Assembly (NCBI GenBank): GCA_048938005.1 | Contig: JBHLMQ010000050.1 | Span: 1-23,087, forward strand | DNA: 23,087 nucleotides | Direction: 5' to 3' | Source of the DNA: Promethearchaeota archaeon | GTDB taxonomy: Archaea > Asgardarchaeota > Lokiarchaeia > Sigyniarchaeales > SOKP01 | Shown: piece after piece, positions 1,618 through 17,245 of the stretch | Layout: the number at the start of each line of letters is the position of its first letter | Position numbering within the stretch: the stretch's first letter is position 1 | Position numbers and translations under genes: made by a program | The notes under the pieces: generated by a model | What the model was told of the DNA's origin: nothing | Database searches by the model: none | Seen by the model: the letters and a program-made list of their open reading frames with translations, nothing else

Positions 1618-1670
1618 ATTTTATACTCAGTTAAAATAAAATGAGAAAAACTAATATTTGGTAACAAATT

Positions 1671-1740
1671 GATGCCGTTGTGCAACGGTATTCTCAATAA
1701 GCATTCACGAGAATGTGTTTTAGCTTATCTCATAGACATC
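1671..1740 (-). promoter_or_regulatory. SECIS element (eukaryote-like AUGA/GA kink-turn type) in the 3'UTR of selD copy 1
   Basis: Minus-strand RNA: GAUGUCU-AUGAG-AUAAGC-UAAAA-CAC-AUUCUC-GUG-AAU-GCUUAU-UGAG-AAUA-CCGUU-GCAC-AACGG-CAUC. AUGA at 1733-1730, UGAG at 1696-1693. 57/70 nt identical to the element behind selD copy 2. Confidence 0.88.
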
Positions 1741-1741
1741 T

Positions 1742-2770
1742 TTAAAGTTTTGTAATTTCAATATTTTGAACATTTTCTGAAATTCTAACGAGCCCTGGTT
1801 GGATATTATCTATTTTTCCGACAATCCAATTAGAAATTTTATAGCTTGATAGCGCAGACGTAAAATCTTCTACTTTAATAGGATCAACAGCAATTAGCAT
1901 ACCTCCCGCAGTTTCGTGGCATTTACAATTATCAAAAGCATATCCTAACTCATGAGATAATTCTTCAGAAAATTTGATTGATGGAACAGTATCAATTGTC
2001 GCAGATAAATCAGAATTCTGAAGCATTTCTGCAGTATGACCCGCCAATCCAAATCCAGTAATATCTGTTAATGCATGAACAAATGAAAAATCAGTGTAAG
2101 AATGTATAGTTTTTACAACATTTTGATTTGAAGTAGTCATTATTTTTATAGCAAGATCAATAGATTTTTGGAGTTCATTCTTAGAATAATTCTCTAGCAT
2201 TTCAGGAAAATCCTTAAGAATCCGATATGATGCCATAATTGCTTGGAGGCCTATTGGTTTGGTTAACACTAGTTTATCTCCTTCCTTTACTCCTTGTTTT
2301 AGAATTAAAGCACCTTTGTTAACATATCCAGACGCTTCTCCGCCTATCAATGGCCATTCGCTATAAATAGTGTGCCCACCGACCACTTTAGAATTTATTT
2401 TTTTTTCCATAAAATATTTTATACCCTTTAGAATCCCTTCAGCAACTTCCATTGGAGTTCTTGTACTAATCGCTAAGAAGACAAGCATCCCTGATATCTC
2501 AGGTACATTCATTGCAAAAATATCATTTGTTACATTACACGCAGCGATTTCACCTGCTATTTCAGGTTCATCTATAATTGGAGTGAAAACGTCAATACTT
2601 TTAACAAGAACCAAATCACTTTTGGGTATAGGTATAATAGCAGCATCTTCAATATCTCCCGCTAAACCTACCTTAATTAATAAATCATTTAGGTCGTTTT
2701 GTCCAAGTTTACAGCTTCATCCATGTATCTTTACATCTGTAGTCAATCGATAATTTAATTCTTTGCTCAT
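1742..2770 (-). CDS. selD: Selenophosphate synthetase (selenide,water dikinase), selenoprotein, Sec at codon 18 (TGA at 2719-2717), 342 aa
   Basis: Extending the 290-aa ORF upstream gives MSKELNYRLTTDVKIHG-U-SCKLGQNDL...EDAAII...IDVFTP. Core motifs NDIFAM, GGHT, GDKLVLTKPIG, TDITGFGLAGH and ETAGGML. GAGGTG SD just upstream of ATG 2770. Confidence 0.95.
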
Positions 2771-2840
2771 ACACCTCAACTTTTTATGATATTTATTTAA
2801 TTTTAAATTAAAGTTAGTTAATAATTCAAGTTCTAACTAT

Positions 2841-2855
2841 CTATAAAAATTTTCG
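2841..2855 (-). promoter_or_regulatory. Putative archaeal BRE-TATA promoter of selD copy 1
   Basis: Minus strand reads CGAAAA-TTTTTATAG about 70 nt upstream of ATG 2770. The AT-rich background limits certainty. Confidence 0.55.
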
Positions 2856-2934
2856 ATATTATTTATCAATTTTATCGATAAATAACAATTATGTTGTAAT
2901 TAAAAATAAGATCTAAAAACACCCAATTATTTAC

Positions 2935-3004
2935 GATGCTGTTTTGCAACAGTATACTCAATAAGCGCCCACAATGATGTGTTTTTACTTATTTCATAGA
3001 CATC
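2935..3004 (-). promoter_or_regulatory. SECIS element (eukaryote-like AUGA/GA kink-turn type) in the 3'UTR of selD copy 2
   Basis: Minus-strand RNA: GAUGUCU-AUGAA-AUAAGU-AAAAA-CACA-UCAU-UGUG-GGC-GCUUAU-UGAG-UAUA-CUGUU-GCAA-AACAG-CAUC. AUGA at 2997-2994, UGAG at 2960-2957. Stem substitutions relative to copy 1 preserve pairing. Confidence 0.88.
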
Positions 3005-3005
3005 G

Positions 3006-4040
3006 CTAGATTTTTGTTATTTCAATATGTTCAGCATTTTTGGATACCCGAACATATTTAGGTTTGCTTGTATTATCGATTGTGCCTATAATCCAGTTTT
3101 TCACGCCAAATTTATTATTTAATCTTTGTGAAAATTCTTCAGCAAATTCATGATCCACAGAGAGAAGCATCCCCCCCGCAGTCTCAGGCATTTCACATTC
3201 ATCATATTTGTACCCAAATTCGTAAGCTAAATCGCTTGTTAGTTTAATACTAGGGATCTTTTCGATTATAGCTGAGAGACGCGAATTTTGAAGTATTTCT
3301 CTCAGATGCCCAGCAAGACCAAAACCACTGACATCTGTCATCGAATGAATGAATGATATATCTCTATATGTATGAATAGTCTTTACAACGTCTTGAAGGG
3401 GTGTTATCATTAATTTCACGGCTATATCAATAGATCTGTCAATTTCAGTTGTAGAATAAGATTCCAAAAGTTCAGGATTATTTTTTTGAAGTCGGTATGC
3501 TGCCATTATTGCTTGATTGCCAATTGGTTTTGTTAGAATTATTTTATCTCCCTCTTCTAAATAGGTTTTTTTGATAATTTTATCTTTTTCAGCAAAACCA
3601 CTTGCCTCACCACCAATAAGAGGCCATTCTGAATATATTGTATGACCCCCAAGAACTTTAGAATTTAATTTTTTCTCCATAAAGTTTTTGATTCCCTTTA
3701 ATATTCCTTCTGCTATGTACATAGGCATGTTTTTCTTTAATCCTAAGAACACAAGCATACCAGATATTTCTGAAACATTTAGAGCAAATATATCGTTGGT
3801 AACATTAGCAGCGGCAATTTCTCCCATGATATCTGGTTCATCTATAATAGGAGTAAATATGTCTATATTTTTAACCATAACTAGGTTAGTATTTGGTACA
3901 GGAATAATTGCGGAATCTTCAAAATCACCTTTTAATCCAGCATTTTCCAGTAGGTTCTCTAATTTCTCACTAGAAAGCTTACAGTCTCATCCAAAAAGTT
4001 TTGTTTGCAATGTCAATCGATAACTCTCTAATTCTTGCAT
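3006..4040 (-). CDS. selD: Selenophosphate synthetase paralog, selenoprotein, Sec at codon 18 (TGA at 3989-3987), 344 aa
   Basis: Extending the ORF upstream gives MQELESYRLTLQTKLFG-U-DCKLSSEKL...EDSAII...IDIFTP. Motifs NDIFAL, GGHT, GDKIILTKPIG, TDVSGFGLAGH and ETAGGML. GAGGTGA SD at 4050-4044. Confidence 0.95.
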
Positions 4041-4227: not shown

Positions 4228-7218
4228 TTATGGAAAGTATAGATCTATATGTTTAGTCATTTTTCTTGCTATCTCGAATTGATCCCGATAGTATAGCTCG
4301 AGTTTGATCTCATCTGCTGTGGGGTCAAATAAATTCTTTTTAAGCTCTTTTTGTTTGTCTACTTTGAGCACATAATTAAATTTGAAAATTTTTCCAGGTT
4401 TAAGTTCATTTATTTGGAGAAATTTTGGAAAACTTTCCTTTCTCTGGAAAATAAGATAAGATGGTACTTTTAAAGATATTTGTAAATCTTTAAAATCAAA
4501 ATTTGAGGGATTAGTTAATTTGAAATTTAAATATATTTCGTTTCCGATAGTTTTGATGTTCTTAAAGAAGAGAATTTCTTTAGAATCTGGTATTTCAGAG
4601 TCAATTTGTTGGAAATAAAGTTTATCATTAATAATTTTTGCATTTAACTTGTTCTTGTTTATAAATTTAAGAACTAATTCTTTTACTCGTTCGATATCTA
4701 ATTTAATATAATTAGCGAGTAAATCTAACTTAATGGGATTAATAATTTTAAGATAATATTTAATTTGATTTAGATATAACTTATTATTAGATTTTCTGAC
4801 AAATGTTTTTGATTTATTTATTATTAACTCTTTTGAGGCATTAAATTTATTAAGATATGGCCTAATATATAAGTTAAATATATTATTATCTTCGAAAATC
4901 TTTTCTTTTCCAAGAATGATATCAATTTTTTTTTCTGCATCTTCAATATAGTTTTGGATTTGCATGGTATTTATTTCTATTAATCTCTTTGCGTCCGAAA
5001 ATTCATTCTTTTTTATTAAGAAATCAAATTTATTAATTAGTTTATGAAAATCCTCATTAAAATTTTTCATACCTTCAATTTTCTCTGTAATAATAGATTG
5101 GATATGTCCTTGAAGTAGTTGAAAACTTAATTCAGTACTAATCCCGTCGATCAGTTTAGATTCAGAACCTATAGTCATTGGTTCAGCTTGCAAAATATAG
5201 TTAAATAGTTTATCTTTCATTAATTTAATTTGGCGATCCAGATCATTCAAATATTCTTGAATTTCTATTTTTGTTGCAACCCATTTCTGTAATAGATCCT
5301 TAAAAATTTCGTTAAATTCTACGTTATTTATTAATAATTCTCTGATATCACCATCCAATTTAAATAACTTTTTCCTTATTTGGGTTATATAACCAAGTGT
5401 ATCATCTTTAATATCTTTTAATTCAATACTAGTTATTTGAGTATCTAAATCTACTTCAAACTTATTTTCTTTCATATATTCAAACTCTGTTTTTAAGATA
5501 TTAATACGATCAATAATTATATTGATCTTTTTTTTCAAATCTAAAGTAAACTCAGCTTTCTTTTCTTCACAGATTTCGGAGATAAACCCTTTAATAATAC
5601 TTAATTCTTCAATAATTTGTACTCTAGTTTCTTCCCAATCTTCGATTAAATCAAATGCCAACCTCTTGTACTCAAATCTATTAATTATTTGGTGAAACTT
5701 TTTAACTTTCTTTAAGATTTTATTATATTTTTCATTTAACTGAATTTCGGTGGTATTAAATTTGAAATTTTGAATGTATGAATTCAATTTTTCTCTAAAT
5801 TGAGCAGGAATTTTCTGAAATTCGATAATTCTCTTCCGAAATATTGTTAATTCATTATTGATTCTTTCAATTGTATTATCGATATCTGGAAAGTTTGCTT
5901 TAATATTTTTTAGTGTATAAATGATTTCTTTCTTGACTTCTGGATCTTTTTCAATTTTTAGAGCATTATTTAACTCAATCGTAATCCAAACAGCAAGCTT
6001 CTTACTTTCTAAAATGAAACATATATTTTGTAACAAAACAATAGTTTTCTTTCTTTCTCGCCAGAATCGGGATTCTAATTGATATAAAATTTTTGTGATT
6101 TCATTTTCAATTTCAATCTGATATTCTTCAAATAATCGCTTAAATACTAATACAATGCCTTCCCTAATATTTTCAGATGGATTTTCTAATTCTTCAAATA
6201 AATAAGGAAATATTTCGGGGATATTCTTGCTGCTTAGATGAAAGATTGCATTTATTAATGAATTTCTATAATCAGAATCACTTGCTTCCAATATTGAATG
6301 CAATAAATTTGCCCAAATTTGATCAAAATTATTTTCAGCGATATTAACAAGAGCTTCAATAACTTTTAATTGAATACGATAATCTTTTTCCTTTAATAGA
6401 TTAATCAACTTTGGTATTATTGAAATTATTTCTGATGATTTTTCTTTGCCAATTTCTCCAAATAACCAAATAATAAGTTCTTTTACTCTATTTTCTTCAT
6501 TATAAAGAAGATTTAATAAAATATAAAATATCTTTTCTTTCGATAGAAAATATGTCCCATGAATCTTTAAAAGTTCTGCTGCTGCCCTCGCAACATCATC
6601 ATCCTCATCCCTTAGATTAATAATTACCATCGATAATAAGGGTTCTAAATCTGGAATTTTAGTATAATCTTGATTTAATATCTTCTGGATTGTCTTTATC
6701 ACATTCAATTTTACCTTCCAGTCATTGTCCATTAATTTTTCGGTATATTCTTCAATTATTTCCTGTAATTCGCTTAAATCTATATGTAAAGATAATATCA
6801 AATTACCTATGATTTTAACCGTTAATCTCCTTACAGAAGAATCTTGGTCATATAAACGGCCTCTAATTTTATTTATTAATTCAATTAAAAGATTTGGCCT
6901 AAACAAACTTATTTGATATGAAATTTCTAATGATACTAATCTAATCCAAGAATCTGAATCATTTATAAAATGATTAATATTGTTTATTGCCCTCAATGAG
7001 ATTGAGGGTGCCTTATCACAAATTAGGTTTAATAAGCTTAAACTTCGATAAATAAGCTCCTTATCAGAATGATTTTCGTAATTTTCTATGATTTCAAATA
7101 TGCTTTCAGCAGCTTTTTCATTATACCCGTTTAAAATTAAACTTTCAATTTTTTCAGTATCTAAAGTCAGAGTTGTCAATGCGGTAGGGAAGATATTTTT
7201 TTTTAAATTATAGTTCAA
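4228..7218 (-). CDS. Large HEAT/ARM-repeat protein with central coiled coil, PCI-like winged helix and C-terminal Ig-like beta-sandwich
   Basis: Repeated HEAT turns (INDSDSWIR, LYDQDSSVR, LMDNDWKVK, LRDEDDDVA, LKEKDYRIQ, LENPSENIR). Long K/E/I/L helical middle region. IKLDLLANYIKLDIERVKELVLKFINKNKLNAKI resembles a PCI winged helix. Tail is beta-rich. TTG start. Confidence 0.8.
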   Translation of the reverse strand: MNYNLKKNIFPTALTTLTLDTEKIESLILNGYNEKAAESIFEIIENYENHSDKELIYRSLSLLNLICDKAPSISLRAINNINHFINDSDSWIRLVSLEISYQISLFRPNLLIELINKIRGRLYDQDSSVRRLTVKIIGNLILSLHIDLSELQEIIEEYTEKLMDNDWKVKLNVIKTIQKILNQDYTKIPDLEPLLSMVIINLRDEDDDVARAAAELLKIHGTYFLSKEKIFYILLNLLYNEENRVKELIIWLFGEIGKEKSSEIISIIPKLINLLKEKDYRIQLKVIEALVNIAENNFDQIWANLLHSILEASDSDYRNSLINAIFHLSSKNIPEIFPYLFEELENPSENIREGIVLVFKRLFEEYQIEIENEITKILYQLESRFWRERKKTIVLLQNICFILESKKLAVWITIELNNALKIEKDPEVKKEIIYTLKNIKANFPDIDNTIERINNELTIFRKRIIEFQKIPAQFREKLNSYIQNFKFNTTEIQLNEKYNKILKKVKKFHQIINRFEYKRLAFDLIEDWEETRVQIIEELSIIKGFISEICEEKKAEFTLDLKKKINIIIDRINILKTEFEYMKENKFEVDLDTQITSIELKDIKDDTLGYITQIRKKLFKLDGDIRELLINNVEFNEIFKDLLQKWVATKIEIQEYLNDLDRQIKLMKDKLFNYILQAEPMTIGSESKLIDGISTELSFQLLQGHIQSIITEKIEGMKNFNEDFHKLINKFDFLIKKNEFSDAKRLIEINTMQIQNYIEDAEKKIDIILGKEKIFEDNNIFNLYIRPYLNKFNASKELIINKSKTFVRKSNNKLYLNQIKYYLKIINPIKLDLLANYIKLDIERVKELVLKFINKNKLNAKIINDKLYFQQIDSEIPDSKEILFFKNIKTIGNEIYLNFKLTNPSNFDFKDLQISLKVPSYLIFQRKESFPKFLQINELKPGKIFKFNYVLKVDKQKELKKNLFDPTADEIKLELYYRDQFEIARKMTKHIDLYFP

Positions 7219-9169: not shown

Positions 9170-10267
9170 TTACGTATCTTTTAATTGATAATAAAAAGCT
9201 CCTGCTACAGCAAAAGCAGAAGAATTAATACGGTCAGGAATCTGTGTAATTTCTTCATAAGAAAAAATGTTATTATATCCTAATTTTTCTAAAGATTTCC
9301 TTATTAAAAACTCAGCAGACAAACCAGTTATTACAAATTTTGGGTAATTTTTAAATTCTTTAAATCTGATGGTAAGGTTATCAATGAACTCTCTAATTTC
9401 GCGTACAATAATATCTAATTGTTTTTGGTAAATATAATTAGCTATAAGGTCTAATTCTTCCCTTGAAATTGTTTCAATGTCCATGCAAATTACCCTAGCA
9501 AGTCGAGCATAACAATTTTCTAAGGATTTTGACCGATTGTCAGCGGTGTCGTTAATATAATCTTTCTCTGAAATATTATTCAAAATTCTGTGCACATCAG
9601 AAATTAAAGCAAATTTCTCAAAGGAAACGCGTATATTTTTACCTTTATAAGGAACATGATGAGTAATGGAAGGAATTGTTGCTCTCAAACCTCCTGTATA
9701 GATTAATTCATTATTTATAAGACGTGAGATATCATCTTTTCCTTTTGGCACTGGAATTGATTTAAAAATAGGAATTATATCAATAGTTGTTGATCCCGCA
9801 TCAATTAAAATACATTGAGATGTAAATCTCCCTAAAAATGAAGCAGTTGATGCCCAATTAGCTGCTGCGATTAAATAATAATCAGATTTAGCAGTTATGT
9901 AATCAACAAATTTATTTTGATTCGTTATAAATTTTAACTTATCCTTATGAAAAATTTTTTCAAGTGCTTCTAATATTGTTAAAATTCCCTCTCTCTTAGT
10001 TTGAAAGGCGTCAGAAAGTTCCGCTGTTATTGTTACTGCAACAAAATCGATTTTTTCTAAATTTAAAGCATTCTTTTCAATTAAATTTAAAACAATTCTA
10101 TTAAACATTTCAGGTATTTGACTTAAAGTTTTTTCCCAGAATGGGAAATATTCAATATAAGAGAATGATTTATAAATCCCCTTATTCTTAAATATAATTA
10201 GAGCTGCTTTAGTGTTTGCTCCTCCAACATCGAGTCCTAAAATATTCATTTCATCCATTTTTGCCAT
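9170..10267 (-). CDS. mfnF: MfnF, hydantoinase-A/ASKHA-family methanofuran biosynthesis enzyme (true start possibly 10249, MNILG)
   Basis: GLDVGGANTK, YFPFW, TITAELSDAFQTKREG, AAANWAST, LIDAGSTTIDIIP, ELIYTGGLR, DTADNR and ARLARVICMD motifs. Confidence 0.88.
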   Translation of the reverse strand: MAKMDEMNILGLDVGGANTKAALIIFKNKGIYKSFSYIEYFPFWEKTLSQIPEMFNRIVLNLIEKNALNLEKIDFVAVTITAELSDAFQTKREGILTILEALEKIFHKDKLKFITNQNKFVDYITAKSDYYLIAAANWASTASFLGRFTSQCILIDAGSTTIDIIPIFKSIPVPKGKDDISRLINNELIYTGGLRATIPSITHHVPYKGKNIRVSFEKFALISDVHRILNNISEKDYINDTADNRSKSLENCYARLARVICMDIETISREELDLIANYIYQKQLDIIVREIREFIDNLTIRFKEFKNYPKFVITGLSAEFLIRKSLEKLGYNNIFSYEEITQIPDRINSSAFAVAGAFYYQLKDT

Positions 10268-11291
10268 ACTTTTGCTTTAAAAGTGATATAATTTTTTCTA
10301 AATTCTCTCCTGTTAAGGCGTTAGTTAAATAATATTCATTTTCCTTCAAGTTTAATTTATCTCTTAAATATTTAATTTCTGAGTCTTTAGTTAAGTCCAT
10401 TTTATTAAATATAATTATAATTTTGGTTCTTCCCTCTTTTGAGAAACTATCCTTTATCTCTTTAAATAACTCAATTTGAGATTCAACAGAGTAACCACAT
10501 GAAATTGAAGGATCGAAGACAAATATTATTAAATCGGAAATAAATCTTAGAGCTAGAATTGCTTGTAATTCAATATTATTTCTTTTAGCCATAGGACGAT
10601 CTAAAATTCCTGGAGTATCTAAACATTGTATTTTAATTTTATCAAATCTTCTCTCAATCTCTAGATGTCCCATATTCAGCTTTTTAGTAGTAAATGGATA
10701 TTCTTTAATTTCAATCTTTTTATTTGTAGAAATATTTTTTACAATACTACTTTTTCCTACATTTGGATACCCCGCAATAACCACACACGGCATTGTGTAA
10801 TCGATTGATGGAATTTCTCTCAAACGTCCTCTTATCTTGTTTAAGTATTCAAGATTATTGCTTTGTTTATTTATGATGGACGATATCCTCCCAAAAGCGG
10901 CTCTTCGTAATTGATCACCTTCTTTTGGAGCTTCTATTCTGCTTAGCTTGCCAATATATTCTCTTTCTATTTGACTAAGAATAGGTAAAATTCCATTTAA
11001 TTTCCCTAAAGTCAATTTTAAATCATCAATATTAACTAAAATAGATGCCAATTCTCTATAAAAATCTGGAAGATCGTCTATAATAGGAACCATCTTTATG
11101 ATATTTAAAATTCGATTTATGAGTTCCTCAATTGCTACCTTAATTCGCTTAGATTCTTTTTTTTTTGCCTTAATTAGAATAGGAGCATTTTTTGAAACCT
11201 GAGCAGAGCTTTTCATTCCCCTCTTAAAGGCGATATCTAATAATTCTTTTGAGCTTAAAACATGATAAAATTCTTCAAAGGGATTTTTCAT
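10251..11291 (-). CDS. nog1: NOG1-family (Obg-like) ribosome-biogenesis GTPase
   Basis: Helical N-domain, G1 AGYPNVGKSS, G2 YPFTTK, G3 DTPGILDRP, RNNIELQAILAL, G4 NKMD. Confidence 0.93.
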   Translation of the reverse strand: MKNPFEEFYHVLSSKELLDIAFKRGMKSSAQVSKNAPILIKAKKKESKRIKVAIEELINRILNIIKMVPIIDDLPDFYRELASILVNIDDLKLTLGKLNGILPILSQIEREYIGKLSRIEAPKEGDQLRRAAFGRISSIINKQSNNLEYLNKIRGRLREIPSIDYTMPCVVIAGYPNVGKSSIVKNISTNKKIEIKEYPFTTKKLNMGHLEIERRFDKIKIQCLDTPGILDRPMAKRNNIELQAILALRFISDLIIFVFDPSISCGYSVESQIELFKEIKDSFSKEGRTKIIIIFNKMDLTKDSEIKYLRDKLNLKENEYYLTNALTGENLEKIISLLKQKYGKNG

Positions 11292-12072: not shown

Positions 12073-13173
12073 ATGTGGTTACCCATGAAAAAATTTAAAG
12101 TTGGCATATTAGGAGCAACTGGAGTTGTAGGGCAAAATTATATTAAATTATTGCAAAACCATCCTTGGTTTCAAATTGTAGATGTTGCAGCATCACCTAG
12201 ATCAGCAAATAAAACATATAAAGAAGCAGTTAAAGAAAAATGGCAAATGTCATTTTCAATTCCCCATTTATTACAGAATTTAATTGTAAGAGATGTCCAA
12301 GATTTTGAATCGCTAAATTCAGAGGTAAATTTGGTTTTTTCAGCAATAAGTTTGCCCAATAAAGAAGATATAAAAACAATTGAATTTAAATACGCTGAAA
12401 AAGGTATACCTGTAATCTCTAATAATTCAGCACATCGATGGACTCCTGATGTTCCTATGATAATTGGAGAAATTAACCATAACCACACAGATATAATACC
12501 AATCCAACAAAGAAAAAGGGGGTTTGGGAATGGGTTTGTAGTAGTTAAACCTAATTGTTCGCTTCAAAGCTATCTCACCCCTATTTATGCACTGCAGAAA
12601 GCAGGATATAAAATAGACAAATTGATAATCACTACACTTCAAGCAGTTTCGGGGGCAGGTTATCCAGGAGTTCCATCTATGGATATTATTGATAATATTG
12701 TACCTTATATCGGTGGAGAAGAAGAAAAAACAGAGAGAGAACCTTTAAAAATCCTAGGGAAAGTAGGAAATAATGGAATTGTAAATAATGAATCAATACA
12801 AATTAGTGCTACATGTACGAGAGTTCCTGTTAGTGATGGTCATACAGCATCAGTTAATATGAAATTCACAGACAAAAAACCTAAAAAAGAAGAGATTATT
12901 AAAATATGGAAAGATTTTAAATCTGTACCTCAAGAGTTGGATTTACCTTTTGCTCCAAAACAGCCGATAATATACTTAGAAAATATTGATAGACCTCAAC
13001 CAAAGAAGGATAGAGATAATGACAAAGGAATGGCTGTATCAGTGGGTAGACTCAGAGAGGATAACGTTTTTGATTATAAGTTTATATCATTAAGTCATAA
13101 TACAATAAGAGGCGCTGCTGGTGGTGCAATTTTGAATGCGGAATTATTAGTAGCTAAAGGTTTAATAAAATAA
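12073..13173 (+). CDS. asd: Aspartate-semialdehyde dehydrogenase (archaeal/fungal type); likely start 12085
   Basis: GILGATGVVGQ, SNNSAHR, catalytic PNCS, QAVSGAGYPG, ATCTRVPVSDGH and HNTIRGAAGG motifs. Confidence 0.96.
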   Translation: MWLPMKKFKVGILGATGVVGQNYIKLLQNHPWFQIVDVAASPRSANKTYKEAVKEKWQMSFSIPHLLQNLIVRDVQDFESLNSEVNLVFSAISLPNKEDIKTIEFKYAEKGIPVISNNSAHRWTPDVPMIIGEINHNHTDIIPIQQRKRGFGNGFVVVKPNCSLQSYLTPIYALQKAGYKIDKLIITTLQAVSGAGYPGVPSMDIIDNIVPYIGGEEEKTEREPLKILGKVGNNGIVNNESIQISATCTRVPVSDGHTASVNMKFTDKKPKKEEIIKIWKDFKSVPQELDLPFAPKQPIIYLENIDRPQPKKDRDNDKGMAVSVGRLREDNVFDYKFISLSHNTIRGAAGGAILNAELLVAKGLIK

Positions 13174-16375: not shown

Positions 16376-17245
16376 ATGTCAAAGATTATTTTAAGCGATA
16401 ATGATATCAAAATTCCGCCAGATATAATTGGAATCGATATGGGGCAAAGTCTTTCGAAATTAGCCTATTTAGAAGATAATCTATTAACATTATCCTATTT
16501 TCCTACTCAAACCAGCATTTCAGATATTAAATTATTTTTGAATTCAAAGAAAGAGCGGTTTAAAATATTCAATTTTACTGGAGGTAAGAGTTTTGAATTA
16601 TATAAAGAATATTCAAAAGATATTAAGACTCACATAATAAATGAATTCGAAGCAAATGTTAGAGGCATAGAATTCCTCCATAATATGGAAAAAAAGAAAG
16701 AAATCTCGAGAACATTGATAGTAACCATAGGAACAGGGACATCAATTGTCTTAAAAGATGAAACTTACCAACATCTCGGAGGATCTGCGATGGGCGGTGG
16801 TTTCTTTATGGGTATAATAAAAGTTCTATTCAATATTGATACTTTTCAAGAAGCAATAAAATTAGCAAAAAAAGGAAATCGATACAATGTTGATTTAAAA
16901 GTTTCAGATATTTATGCTCCTGAAGATGATAGGGTTGATCAACTTTTTAGGGAATTCACTGCTGCCTCATTGGGTAAGATTGATGAGAATTATGACACTA
17001 AATATTTAAATAAAGAAGATTTTATTACGTCTATAATTTGTCTAATTGGCGAAAATTTAGGTACAATTGCAACAATTTTAGCTGATAATAATGATGTAAC
17101 AAATATTGTCTTTTGTGGGGGTTTCTTAATAGAAAATAAGATTTTAAAGAAAATTCTATCTCTTTTATGCAAGGTTAATAAAAAAAAAGCAATTTTTTTA
17201 AAAAACTCTGAATTTTGTGCGGCCATTGGAGCTTTATTAATATAA
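16376..17245 (+). CDS. coaW: Type II pantothenate kinase (Fumble/CoaW, ASKHA fold)
   Basis: GIDMGQSLSK, FTGG, EFEANVRG, IGTGTSI, GGSAMGGG, GNRYNVDLKVSDIY, AASLGK, FCGGF and AIGAL motifs. Confidence 0.88.
   Translation: MSKIILSDNDIKIPPDIIGIDMGQSLSKLAYLEDNLLTLSYFPTQTSISDIKLFLNSKKERFKIFNFTGGKSFELYKEYSKDIKTHIINEFEANVRGIEFLHNMEKKKEISRTLIVTIGTGTSIVLKDETYQHLGGSAMGGGFFMGIIKVLFNIDTFQEAIKLAKKGNRYNVDLKVSDIYAPEDDRVDQLFREFTAASLGKIDENYDTKYLNKEDFITSIICLIGENLGTIATILADNNDVTNIVFCGGFLIENKILKKILSLLCKVNKKKAIFLKNSEFCAAIGALLI

Follow-up and report, generated by a model that had tools for sequence, protein, structure and literature searches.

Probable selD-specific SECIS elements of eukaryote-like architecture behind the tandem selD genes of a Promethearchaeota archaeon

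Two selD genes, coding for selenophosphate synthetase, lie in tandem on contig JBHLMQ010000050.1 of a Promethearchaeota archaeon of the Sigyniarchaeales (assembly GCA_048938005.1), analysed here over its whole length of 23,087 nucleotides (nt), called the window hereafter. Each gene is followed by a noncoding block of 70 nt, and each block is very probably the SECIS (selenocysteine insertion sequence) of the selD gene preceding it, belonging to the type II form, specific to selD, of the eukaryote-like SECIS found in Asgard archaea. The observations that carry this reading are the sequence itself, its conservation, the covariation of all helices, the exclusive association of such elements with UGA-containing genes, and the presence of a selenocysteine (Sec) machinery in the genome (3.72 Mb, 29.8% G+C, in which the window is contig C86).

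The blocks lie on the minus strand and start 1 nt past the selD stop codons. Their ungapped identity is 57/70 (81%), whereas the paralogues agree in 44 of the last 70 coding nt and in 20 of the 70 nt following the blocks (29%), in agreement with the initial annotation of this DNA, which had described two related blocks between unrelated flanks. Because the identity of the whole coding DNA has fallen to 65.6% (60% for the proteins) and that of the flank to 29% while the blocks keep 81%, the blocks are taken to be under selection. The same figures make it exceedingly improbable that their similarity merely survives from a duplication or gene conversion in the recent past: selD1 and selD2 are indeed adjacent paralogues in the same orientation, as such an origin would have it, but both recur with their elements in most genomes of the genus, and with compensatory changes.

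Both genes are well identified. They score 190.1 and 172.6 bits (selD1 and selD2) with the NCBIfam selD equivalog TIGR00476, for a cut-off of 125, and 287.1 and 254.2 bits with the archaeal-type model NF010705, just below its cut-off of 291. Each contains one in-frame TGA, at codon 18, inside the glycine-rich active-site motif. From this UGA, the AUGA motif of the block lies 986 nt (selD1) and 992 nt (selD2) downstream, close to the distance of about 980 nt over which the initial annotation had supposed the element to act. The setting is that of an Asgard selenoprotein gene accompanied by a Sec machinery: besides the position of both elements directly behind selD, the genome encodes a tRNA-Sec (61.7 bits, above the Rfam cut-off) adjoining the gene for SepSecS (382 bits), about 230 nt away on the same strand (C97:100492-101964, minus strand). 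Downstream of each element, a run of five U is kept between both copies, and the one behind SECIS-1 is likely an archaeal transcription stop. As a U-run follows each element and an A+T-rich spacer of 164 nt separates that of SECIS-2 from selD1, each selD gene probably has its own transcript with its own SECIS.

RNAfold predicts in these blocks a helix AUAAGC/GCUUAU, an unpaired run of A and a CAC/GUG ministem, to which it adds a GAUG/CAUC helix on the outside and one further hairpin. The first three parts are those drawn in the initial annotation, and they are also borne out by 51 relatives. The two differences between the blocks that it had cited keep the pairing (G.U vs A-U at positions 13-46, C-G vs U.G at positions 19-40), and one pair of the additional hairpin, called the third arm below, differs on both sides between the copies (C-G vs U-A).

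A search with the SelD protein covered 36 relatives within the genus and 24 in further genera of its class, 60 in all. It found a selD gene with an in-frame TGA in 34 of the 36, for the most part as this tandem pair, and in 21 of the 24. Among 52 selD 3' untranslated regions (UTRs) cut from 30 loci of the genus, 51 carry the element and were aligned with MAFFT, the 52nd, which bears a type I element, being left out. Over the 51 rows, 95.2% of the cells of the proposed structure hold standard pairs, against 30-50% when the partners are slid, and the covariation score of 0.240 exceeds the 0.153 of shuffled alignments and was reached by none of 500 shuffles.

The AUGA and GA motifs are present in both blocks, and the four bases forming the tandem G.A/A.G pairs (G11, A12, G47, A48) are invariant in 51/51 relatives. 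Below them, the C-stem pair 7-49 is CG in 34 rows, UA in 16 and UG in 1, and never unpaired, while pair 6-50 is UA in 50/51. The bulge reads N-A-U in 49/51 (AAU 26, UAU 14, GAU 9, other 2), and the 3b.3n position is A-U in 22, U.U in 17 and G.U in 5. With a Watson-Crick C-stem, a 3-nt bulge and tandem G.A/A.G pairs, the element is a textbook kink-turn in sequence, and folding into a kink-turn is predicted accordingly from these features. The kink-turn proposed by the initial annotation thus stands at the sequence level, whereas the G following the 3' GA, which it had drawn unpaired, is the partner of position 7. Above the kink-turn, the top pairs of helix II change on both sides (CG 41, UA 6, UG 4; GC 48, AU 3). 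The seventh pair is standard in only 30/51 relatives, so that, of the 6-7 base pairs (bp) announced, the shortness of the helix is upheld and six pairs are firm. The unpaired A-run and apical ministem are equally retained, the latter in 49/51 relatives, with a third pair that is CG in 35 and UA in 13. Pairs of the third arm covary strongly (CG 32, UA 19; AU 27, GC 23).

Some selD loci of the relatives depart from the common pattern. Behind selD1 of locus L030 (relative G013), the 3'UTR set aside above contains a type I element with a 9-bp stem, an 11-nt loop, an A-G-C-A third-arm loop and a 7-bp closing helix, while its selD2 has retained type II; the SECIS type seems to have been exchanged here inside the genus. 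In selD2 of L026 (relative G020; locus positions about 313-420), the frame breaks and shifts directly past the Sec codon, with about 34 nt between '...FGU' and 'CKLS...'; these may be a small intron, or else the gene may be broken. The selD2 match of relative G108 begins only past the Sec position, and no TGA was counted there.

The specificity of the element was examined over the genome with covariance models, an approach suggested by the initial annotation both as a check of its reading and as a means of finding new selenoproteins. A model built from the selD elements of the 51 relatives (R1) matches only the two selD UTRs; its next best match scores 20.5 bits and is not behind a gene. R1 matches of 15-20 bits elsewhere were rejected, none being downstream of a plausible gene. 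For type I elements, a descriptor was written after the published lokiSECIS (AUGA, 9-bp stem, 11-nt A-rich loop ending in G, then GA or AA). Its first version was loose, and a stricter one was then used, with 12 matches in the genome and 1 in its reversed version. Open reading frames (ORFs) with an in-frame TGA stand directly in front of seven of the 12, namely three vhuD, one hdrA and three small ORFs; the other five were not credited, one of them (on C70) being inside an ordinary ORF. A second covariance model (R2), built from the type I elements of 28 vhuD orthologues found by protein homology, has 7 genomic matches at E <= 2.6e-4, all directly behind TGA-containing ORFs and including a fourth hdrA-vhuD pair on C49, while its three matches at E > 1 are not behind such ORFs. 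Credible matches of both models are therefore found only behind UGA-containing genes.

The VhuD family provides an internal control. Among the 15 VhuD/MvhD homologues of the genome, 4 have Sec (TGA) at both conserved positions and 11 have Cys at both, without any mixed form. A SECIS lies behind all four double-TGA genes (three detected by the descriptor, the fourth by R2) and behind none of the 11 Cys forms, where the search concerned the kink-turn arm (0/11) and a lone hairpin was not searched for separately.

These associations bear on whether the elements could be sites for a kink-turn-binding protein that controls how selD is expressed or how stable its mRNA is, with selenium as one possible cue, the UGA being recoded by other means. 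Kink-turns are bound generally by L7Ae and L30e, a dedicated SECIS-binding protein was not found in the genome, and a lokiarchaeal SECIS is inactive in a methanogen (a reporter result cited below), all of which would suit such a regulator. Yet the same core and junction stand behind unrelated UGA genes (vhuD, hdrA and three small ORFs) and are absent behind the Cys paralogues, a distribution expected of a recoding signal and not of a regulator of selD. A role restricted to selD regulation is for this reason very unlikely.

The three small ORFs have no credible Pfam family and are candidate selenoprotein genes, in line with the use of the scan as a finder. On C73, at about 12130-12265 (plus strand), a 45-codon ORF encodes a single-pass membrane protein; its glycine-rich C-terminus includes a UGA three codons ahead of the stop, and the ORF precedes an R2 match (12352-12429, 49.6 bits) by about 90 nt. 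The protein is a candidate small selenoprotein, whose C-terminal Sec presumably recalls that of eukaryotic SelK and SelS. The ORF C80:580-816 (minus strand) has an in-frame UGA and a SECIS match directly behind it, and encodes a membrane protein of 78 aa that contains a U-x-x-x-C motif; the sole Pfam match (18.1 bits, E 0.0028) is far under the cut-off of 37.2 bits. The ORF C17:134497-134973 (plus strand), also with a SECIS match directly behind it, encodes a protein of 158 aa, has two UGA codons next to each other and gives no Pfam match.

The last 22 nt of each selD block had been left unexplained in the initial annotation, which missed both the third arm and the closing helix. They consist of a third hairpin with a G-C-A loop and of the 3' strand of the closing helix, so that the element as a whole is a three-way junction. 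Its 5' strand is continuous through helix I and the C-stem, whereas its 3' strand carries, between the two, 3 unpaired bases and the hairpin of 14-15 nt. This hairpin has a G-C clamp, and the G of its G-C-A loop is invariant among the selD elements of the genus. All seven type I elements of the genome share the layout, with a closing helix, a kink-turn arm and a short hairpin, the G-C-A loop being found in 5/7.

The third hairpin might nonetheless be a neighbouring 3'-end element, such as a terminator or a processing or stability hairpin, separate from the SECIS. It is near the end of the transcript, 15-20 nt ahead of the U-run, and eukaryotic SECIS elements are not known to have such a third arm; as far as their texts go, the published SECIS models also manage without it. 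However, the hairpin is enclosed by the closing helix, the 5' strand of which is upstream of the kink-turn. Moreover, it follows the kink-turn arm with great regularity in 3'UTRs that were gathered through the proteins, a collection blind to the RNA. A G+C-containing hairpin stands directly after the arm in 49/50 selD UTRs of the genus, 13/14 selD UTRs from other families of the class and 45/45 vhuD UTRs, for 5.1, 1.8 and 4.1 expected from shuffled flanks (107/109 against 11.0 in total). Hairpin and enclosing helix of at least 4 bp are found together in 46, 7 and 40 of them, for 2.0, 0.4 and 1.0 expected (93/109 against 3.4). UTRs in which the descriptor found no arm (2/52, 6/20 and 5/50) are excluded from these denominators.

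The type I elements show changes in the closing helix. A MAFFT alignment of all 45 VhuD elements (A3) was structurally incoherent across types and was replaced by a subset of 28 sequences (A4) and by a model-fitted alignment (A5) of 27 elements from several paralogue classes and families. In A5, which is biased towards the structure of the model, 93.3% of the cells pair, against 67.4% when shuffled; 19/20 pairs change on both sides, and the third arm is 87.6% paired. The closing helix is 97.1% paired, with changes on both sides in 5/6 of its pairs, which argues against a separate hairpin.

Beyond the class, the junction occurs in 17/20 selD UTRs that represent five further families within the phylum, for 1.3 expected, and the loop of the third arm is G-C-(A/G) in all 17. 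The descriptor used within the genus failed on distant selD UTRs (6/15) because the C-stem and the spacing differ there, and the 17/20 were obtained with a looser one; of the three misses, one has a CUGA core and two have third arms with an internal mismatch. As kin are not independent, these counts across families indicate breadth and not probability. With the enclosing helix, the regular co-occurrence, the persistence of the arm in distant families and the lack of a kink-turn arm behind the Cys-type VhuD genes, a hairpin foreign to the SECIS is unlikely, and the third arm is better regarded as part of a three-way-junction SECIS.

Eukaryote-like SECIS elements of Asgard archaea have been described before. 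According to the text of Mariotti et al. 2016 (PMC4989117), selenoprotein genes of Lokiarchaeota carry eukaryote-like SECIS while no SBP2 was found; the 'lokiSECIS' of SPS/selD resembles the type II SECIS of eukaryotes, its stem being shorter and an additional stem standing at the apex, and Lokiarchaeota are considered an intermediate form. Huang, Xiao and Zhang 2024 (PMC11227280), whose text covers more than 400 Asgard genomes, report that selD mainly carries type II eSECIS-like elements and that 51 Loki- and Thorarchaeia have two or more selD genes, and propose selD as an intermediate towards the eukaryotic SECIS. The intermediate position suggested by the initial annotation is therefore the reading already published in these two texts. 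The type II model given by Huang 2024 comprises an upper stem of 7-15 bp (<= 2 mismatches), a bulge, a ministem of 2-8 bp and an apical loop of 2-6 nt, with 'no highly conserved nucleotides' reported around the key regions. This pattern, re-implemented without indels, matches 51/51 of the genus elements, which have a stem of 7 bp (the lower limit), bulges of 5 nt and 3 nt, a ministem of 3-4 bp and a loop of 4-6 nt.

The elements of the window share with the SPS lokiSECIS and the Asgard type II eSECIS-like elements their place directly past the stop of a Sec-containing selD and the core, which is 5'-(A/G)UGA...(G/A)A-3' for the class and AUGA...GA here. A-rich unpaired bases atop a short main stem and the extra apical ministem are likewise common to them and the SPS lokiSECIS, as is the fact of escaping eukaryotic, bacterial and methanogen SECIS models. 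They differ in extent, since the published texts model the core, the upper stem and the apex only. A third hairpin, a three-way junction or a covarying 2-bp C-stem is not described in the texts of Mariotti 2016 and Huang 2024, whose figures and supplements may show more, nor is the third arm in the text of a 2026 review (PMC13188914) as far as available. A literature search combining SECIS, three-way junction and archaea returned only unrelated papers, and one on Asgard, SECIS, kink-turn and L7Ae gave no description of a third arm in the titles or abstracts among the matches listed.

Form 2 of the eukaryotic SECIS (Rfam SECIS_1, RF00031) has in common with these elements its location in the 3'UTR, its action at a distance, the AUGA/GA kink-turn, the unpaired adenosines and the apical ministem. 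In contrast, helix II is shorter here, at 6-7 bp (compare the text of Mariotti, PMC4989117), the internal loop of eukaryotes is replaced by a third arm on the 3' strand between C-stem and helix I, no Rfam match to RF00031 was obtained at E <= 10, and no SBP2 is known. Type I lokiSECIS (vhuD/hdrA, vhuU, prxL; Mariotti 2016) have, in this genome and its relatives, the same kink-turn core and closing helix and also the same third arm, whose loop is often G-C-A. They differ by a stem of 9 bp, a loop of 11 nt with G as its last base, the lack of a ministem and a 3' core that is often AA.

With the methanogen SECIS, the elements share a place in the 3'UTR of archaeal selenoprotein genes including selD, as described in the text of Peiter et al. 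2025 (PMC11881835). The SECIS of Methanococcales and Methanopyrus has a GAA/A asymmetric bulge between G-C clamps, which is absent from the covariation-supported structure here; in the GAA that follows the 3' G.A pair of SECIS-1, the G and the first A instead pair with positions 7 and 6. The eukaryote-like, non-methanogen architecture claimed at first is therefore retained. An equation of the third arm with the stem of the methanogen SECIS was considered and dropped as unsupported. A further comparison is with the k-junction, reportedly described by Wang et al. in 2014 as a kink-turn elaborated into a three-way junction. There, a third helix likewise leaves the non-bulged strand beside the C-helix of the kink-turn, whereas here 3 unpaired nt and a C-stem of 2-3 bp separate the G.A pairs from the third arm, in a structure deduced from sequence.

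Several points weigh against the identification of the blocks as SECIS elements. The folding energy of the 70-nt blocks shows no excess stability over shuffled sequences (z = -0.5 and -1.5), and since single-sequence energies are no better than those of shuffles, the case rests on comparative evidence. There, helix I (GAUG/CAUC) of the selD elements is nearly invariant and consequently has no covariation of its own, and the compared genomes are mutually related, so that pair counts overstate the number of independent events. Scanned against Rfam at E <= 10, the complete window gave no SECIS family and four chance-level matches only. For the L7Ae family, only two small ORFs, of 125 and 143 codons (candidates for L7Ae and L30e), were found in the genome, with no dedicated SECIS-binding protein, and no SBP2 homologue is known in archaea according to the texts of Mariotti 2016 (PMC4989117) and Sun 2021. 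A lokiarchaeal SECIS was non-functional in Methanococcus maripaludis, as stated in the text of Peiter et al. 2025 (PMC11881835).

The following mechanism is compatible with the comparative data, which make the kink-turn fold, its binding partner and the recoding itself predictions. The 3'UTR RNA would fold as a three-way junction in which a closing helix of 4 bp is combined with a kink-turn arm and with a short, G+C-clamped third hairpin with a G-C-A loop. The kink-turn arm would consist of a 2-bp C-stem, a 3-nt N-A-U bulge, sheared G.A/A.G pairs, a helix II of 6-7 bp, an A-rich bulge of 5 nt and a ministem of 3-4 bp. A factor would bind the kink-turn, candidates being L7Ae, L30e or the Sec-specific elongation factor itself, and the complex would deliver Sec-tRNASec to the ribosome at the UGA of codon 18, about 990 nt upstream. 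Most likely, the junction would thus recruit the elongation factor and Sec-tRNASec either directly or via a kink-turn binder. The third arm may brace the very short C-stem or offer a second recognition site.

A broader proposal is made tentatively, as one that may well prove wrong. The working Asgard SECIS would be the three-way junction and not the published stem-loop, with a textbook kink-turn beside an arm that has a G-C-(A/G) loop and is retained in selD, in vhuD/hdrA and in the small orphan selenoprotein genes, and also across at least six families of the phylum. The arm might be the missing specificity determinant, a docking site for the Sec elongation factor or for a factor that reads the SECIS in archaea, and the eukaryotic SECIS might have arisen by loss of the arm and lengthening of helix II once SBP2 took over. 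If so, omission of the third arm from constructs might help to explain the failure of the Loki SECIS in the methanogen reporter.

The coordinates of both genes and of the parts of both elements are collected in Table 1.

Table 1. Positions in the window of the selD genes, of the parts of the two predicted SECIS elements and of the U-runs behind them
Feature	Position	Strand	Remarks
selD1 (selenophosphate synthetase, 342 aa)	1742..2770	-	Sec codon UGA 2719-2717 (codon 18); stop TAA 1744-1742
SECIS-1, whole three-way junction	1671..1740	-	R1 model 85.7 bits
SECIS-1 closing helix I	1740-1737 with 1674-1671	-	
SECIS-1 kink-turn	C-stem 1736-1735 with 1693-1692; bulge 1734-1732; G.A/A.G 1731-1730 with 1695-1694	-	3-nt bulge; tandem G.A/A.G
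SECIS-1 upper part	helix II 1729-1723 with 1702-1696; A-run 1722-1718; ministem 1717-1715 with 1708-1706	-	
SECIS-1 third arm	1675..1688	-	5-bp hairpin, 4-nt loop starting G-C-A
Run of five U	1646..1650	-	about 20 nt downstream of SECIS-1
selD2 (344 aa)	3006..4040	-	Sec codon UGA 3989-3987 (codon 18); stop TAG 3008-3006
SECIS-2, whole three-way junction	2935..3004	-	R1 model 83.9 bits
SECIS-2 helix I	3004-3001 with 2938-2935	-	
SECIS-2 kink-turn	C-stem 3000-2999 with 2957-2956; bulge 2998-2996; G.A/A.G 2995-2994 with 2959-2958	-	second C-stem pair U/U
SECIS-2 upper part	helix II 2993-2987 with 2966-2960; A-run 2986-2982; ministem 2981-2979 with 2972-2970	-	
SECIS-2 third arm	2939..2952	-	5-bp hairpin, 4-nt loop starting G-C-A
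Run of five U	2915..2919	-	about 15 nt downstream of SECIS-2

Other genes of the window are also of eukaryote-like kinds. The upstream neighbour of selD2 (4228-7218, minus strand) encodes a eukaryote-like scaffold protein of 996 aa, in which HEAT repeats, a region resembling the adaptin N-terminus and a weak PCI domain are recognized. A NOG1-type GTPase (10251-11291, minus strand) and a type II (Fumble) pantothenate kinase (16376-17245, plus strand) are encoded further along. Elsewhere in the genome, an actin gene scores 442 bits and is accompanied by three more genes of the actin family, and an ESCRT-II EAP30 protein exceeds a cut-off that none of 14 control prokaryotes reach. Taken with the Sec machinery and the SECIS elements, these genes are the marks of an Asgard archaeon of the Loki type that uses Sec.

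The reading of the two blocks as eukaryote-like SECIS is well supported and, according to the texts cited above, already in print. Given this earlier publication, the finding mainly serves to confirm the known result independently on a new genome, and its comparative support is stronger than a single genome could offer. A possible addition is the full architecture, in which a covariation-backed C-stem is joined by a third arm that a lower helix closes, common to both SECIS types and phylum-wide. The whole junction of about 70-80 nt, and not the published stem-loop, would then be suited to tests of Sec recoding in Asgard archaea or to fishing for a SECIS-binding factor. A model of the whole element may also serve as a finder of selenoprotein genes, as it did here in pointing to three small ORFs.

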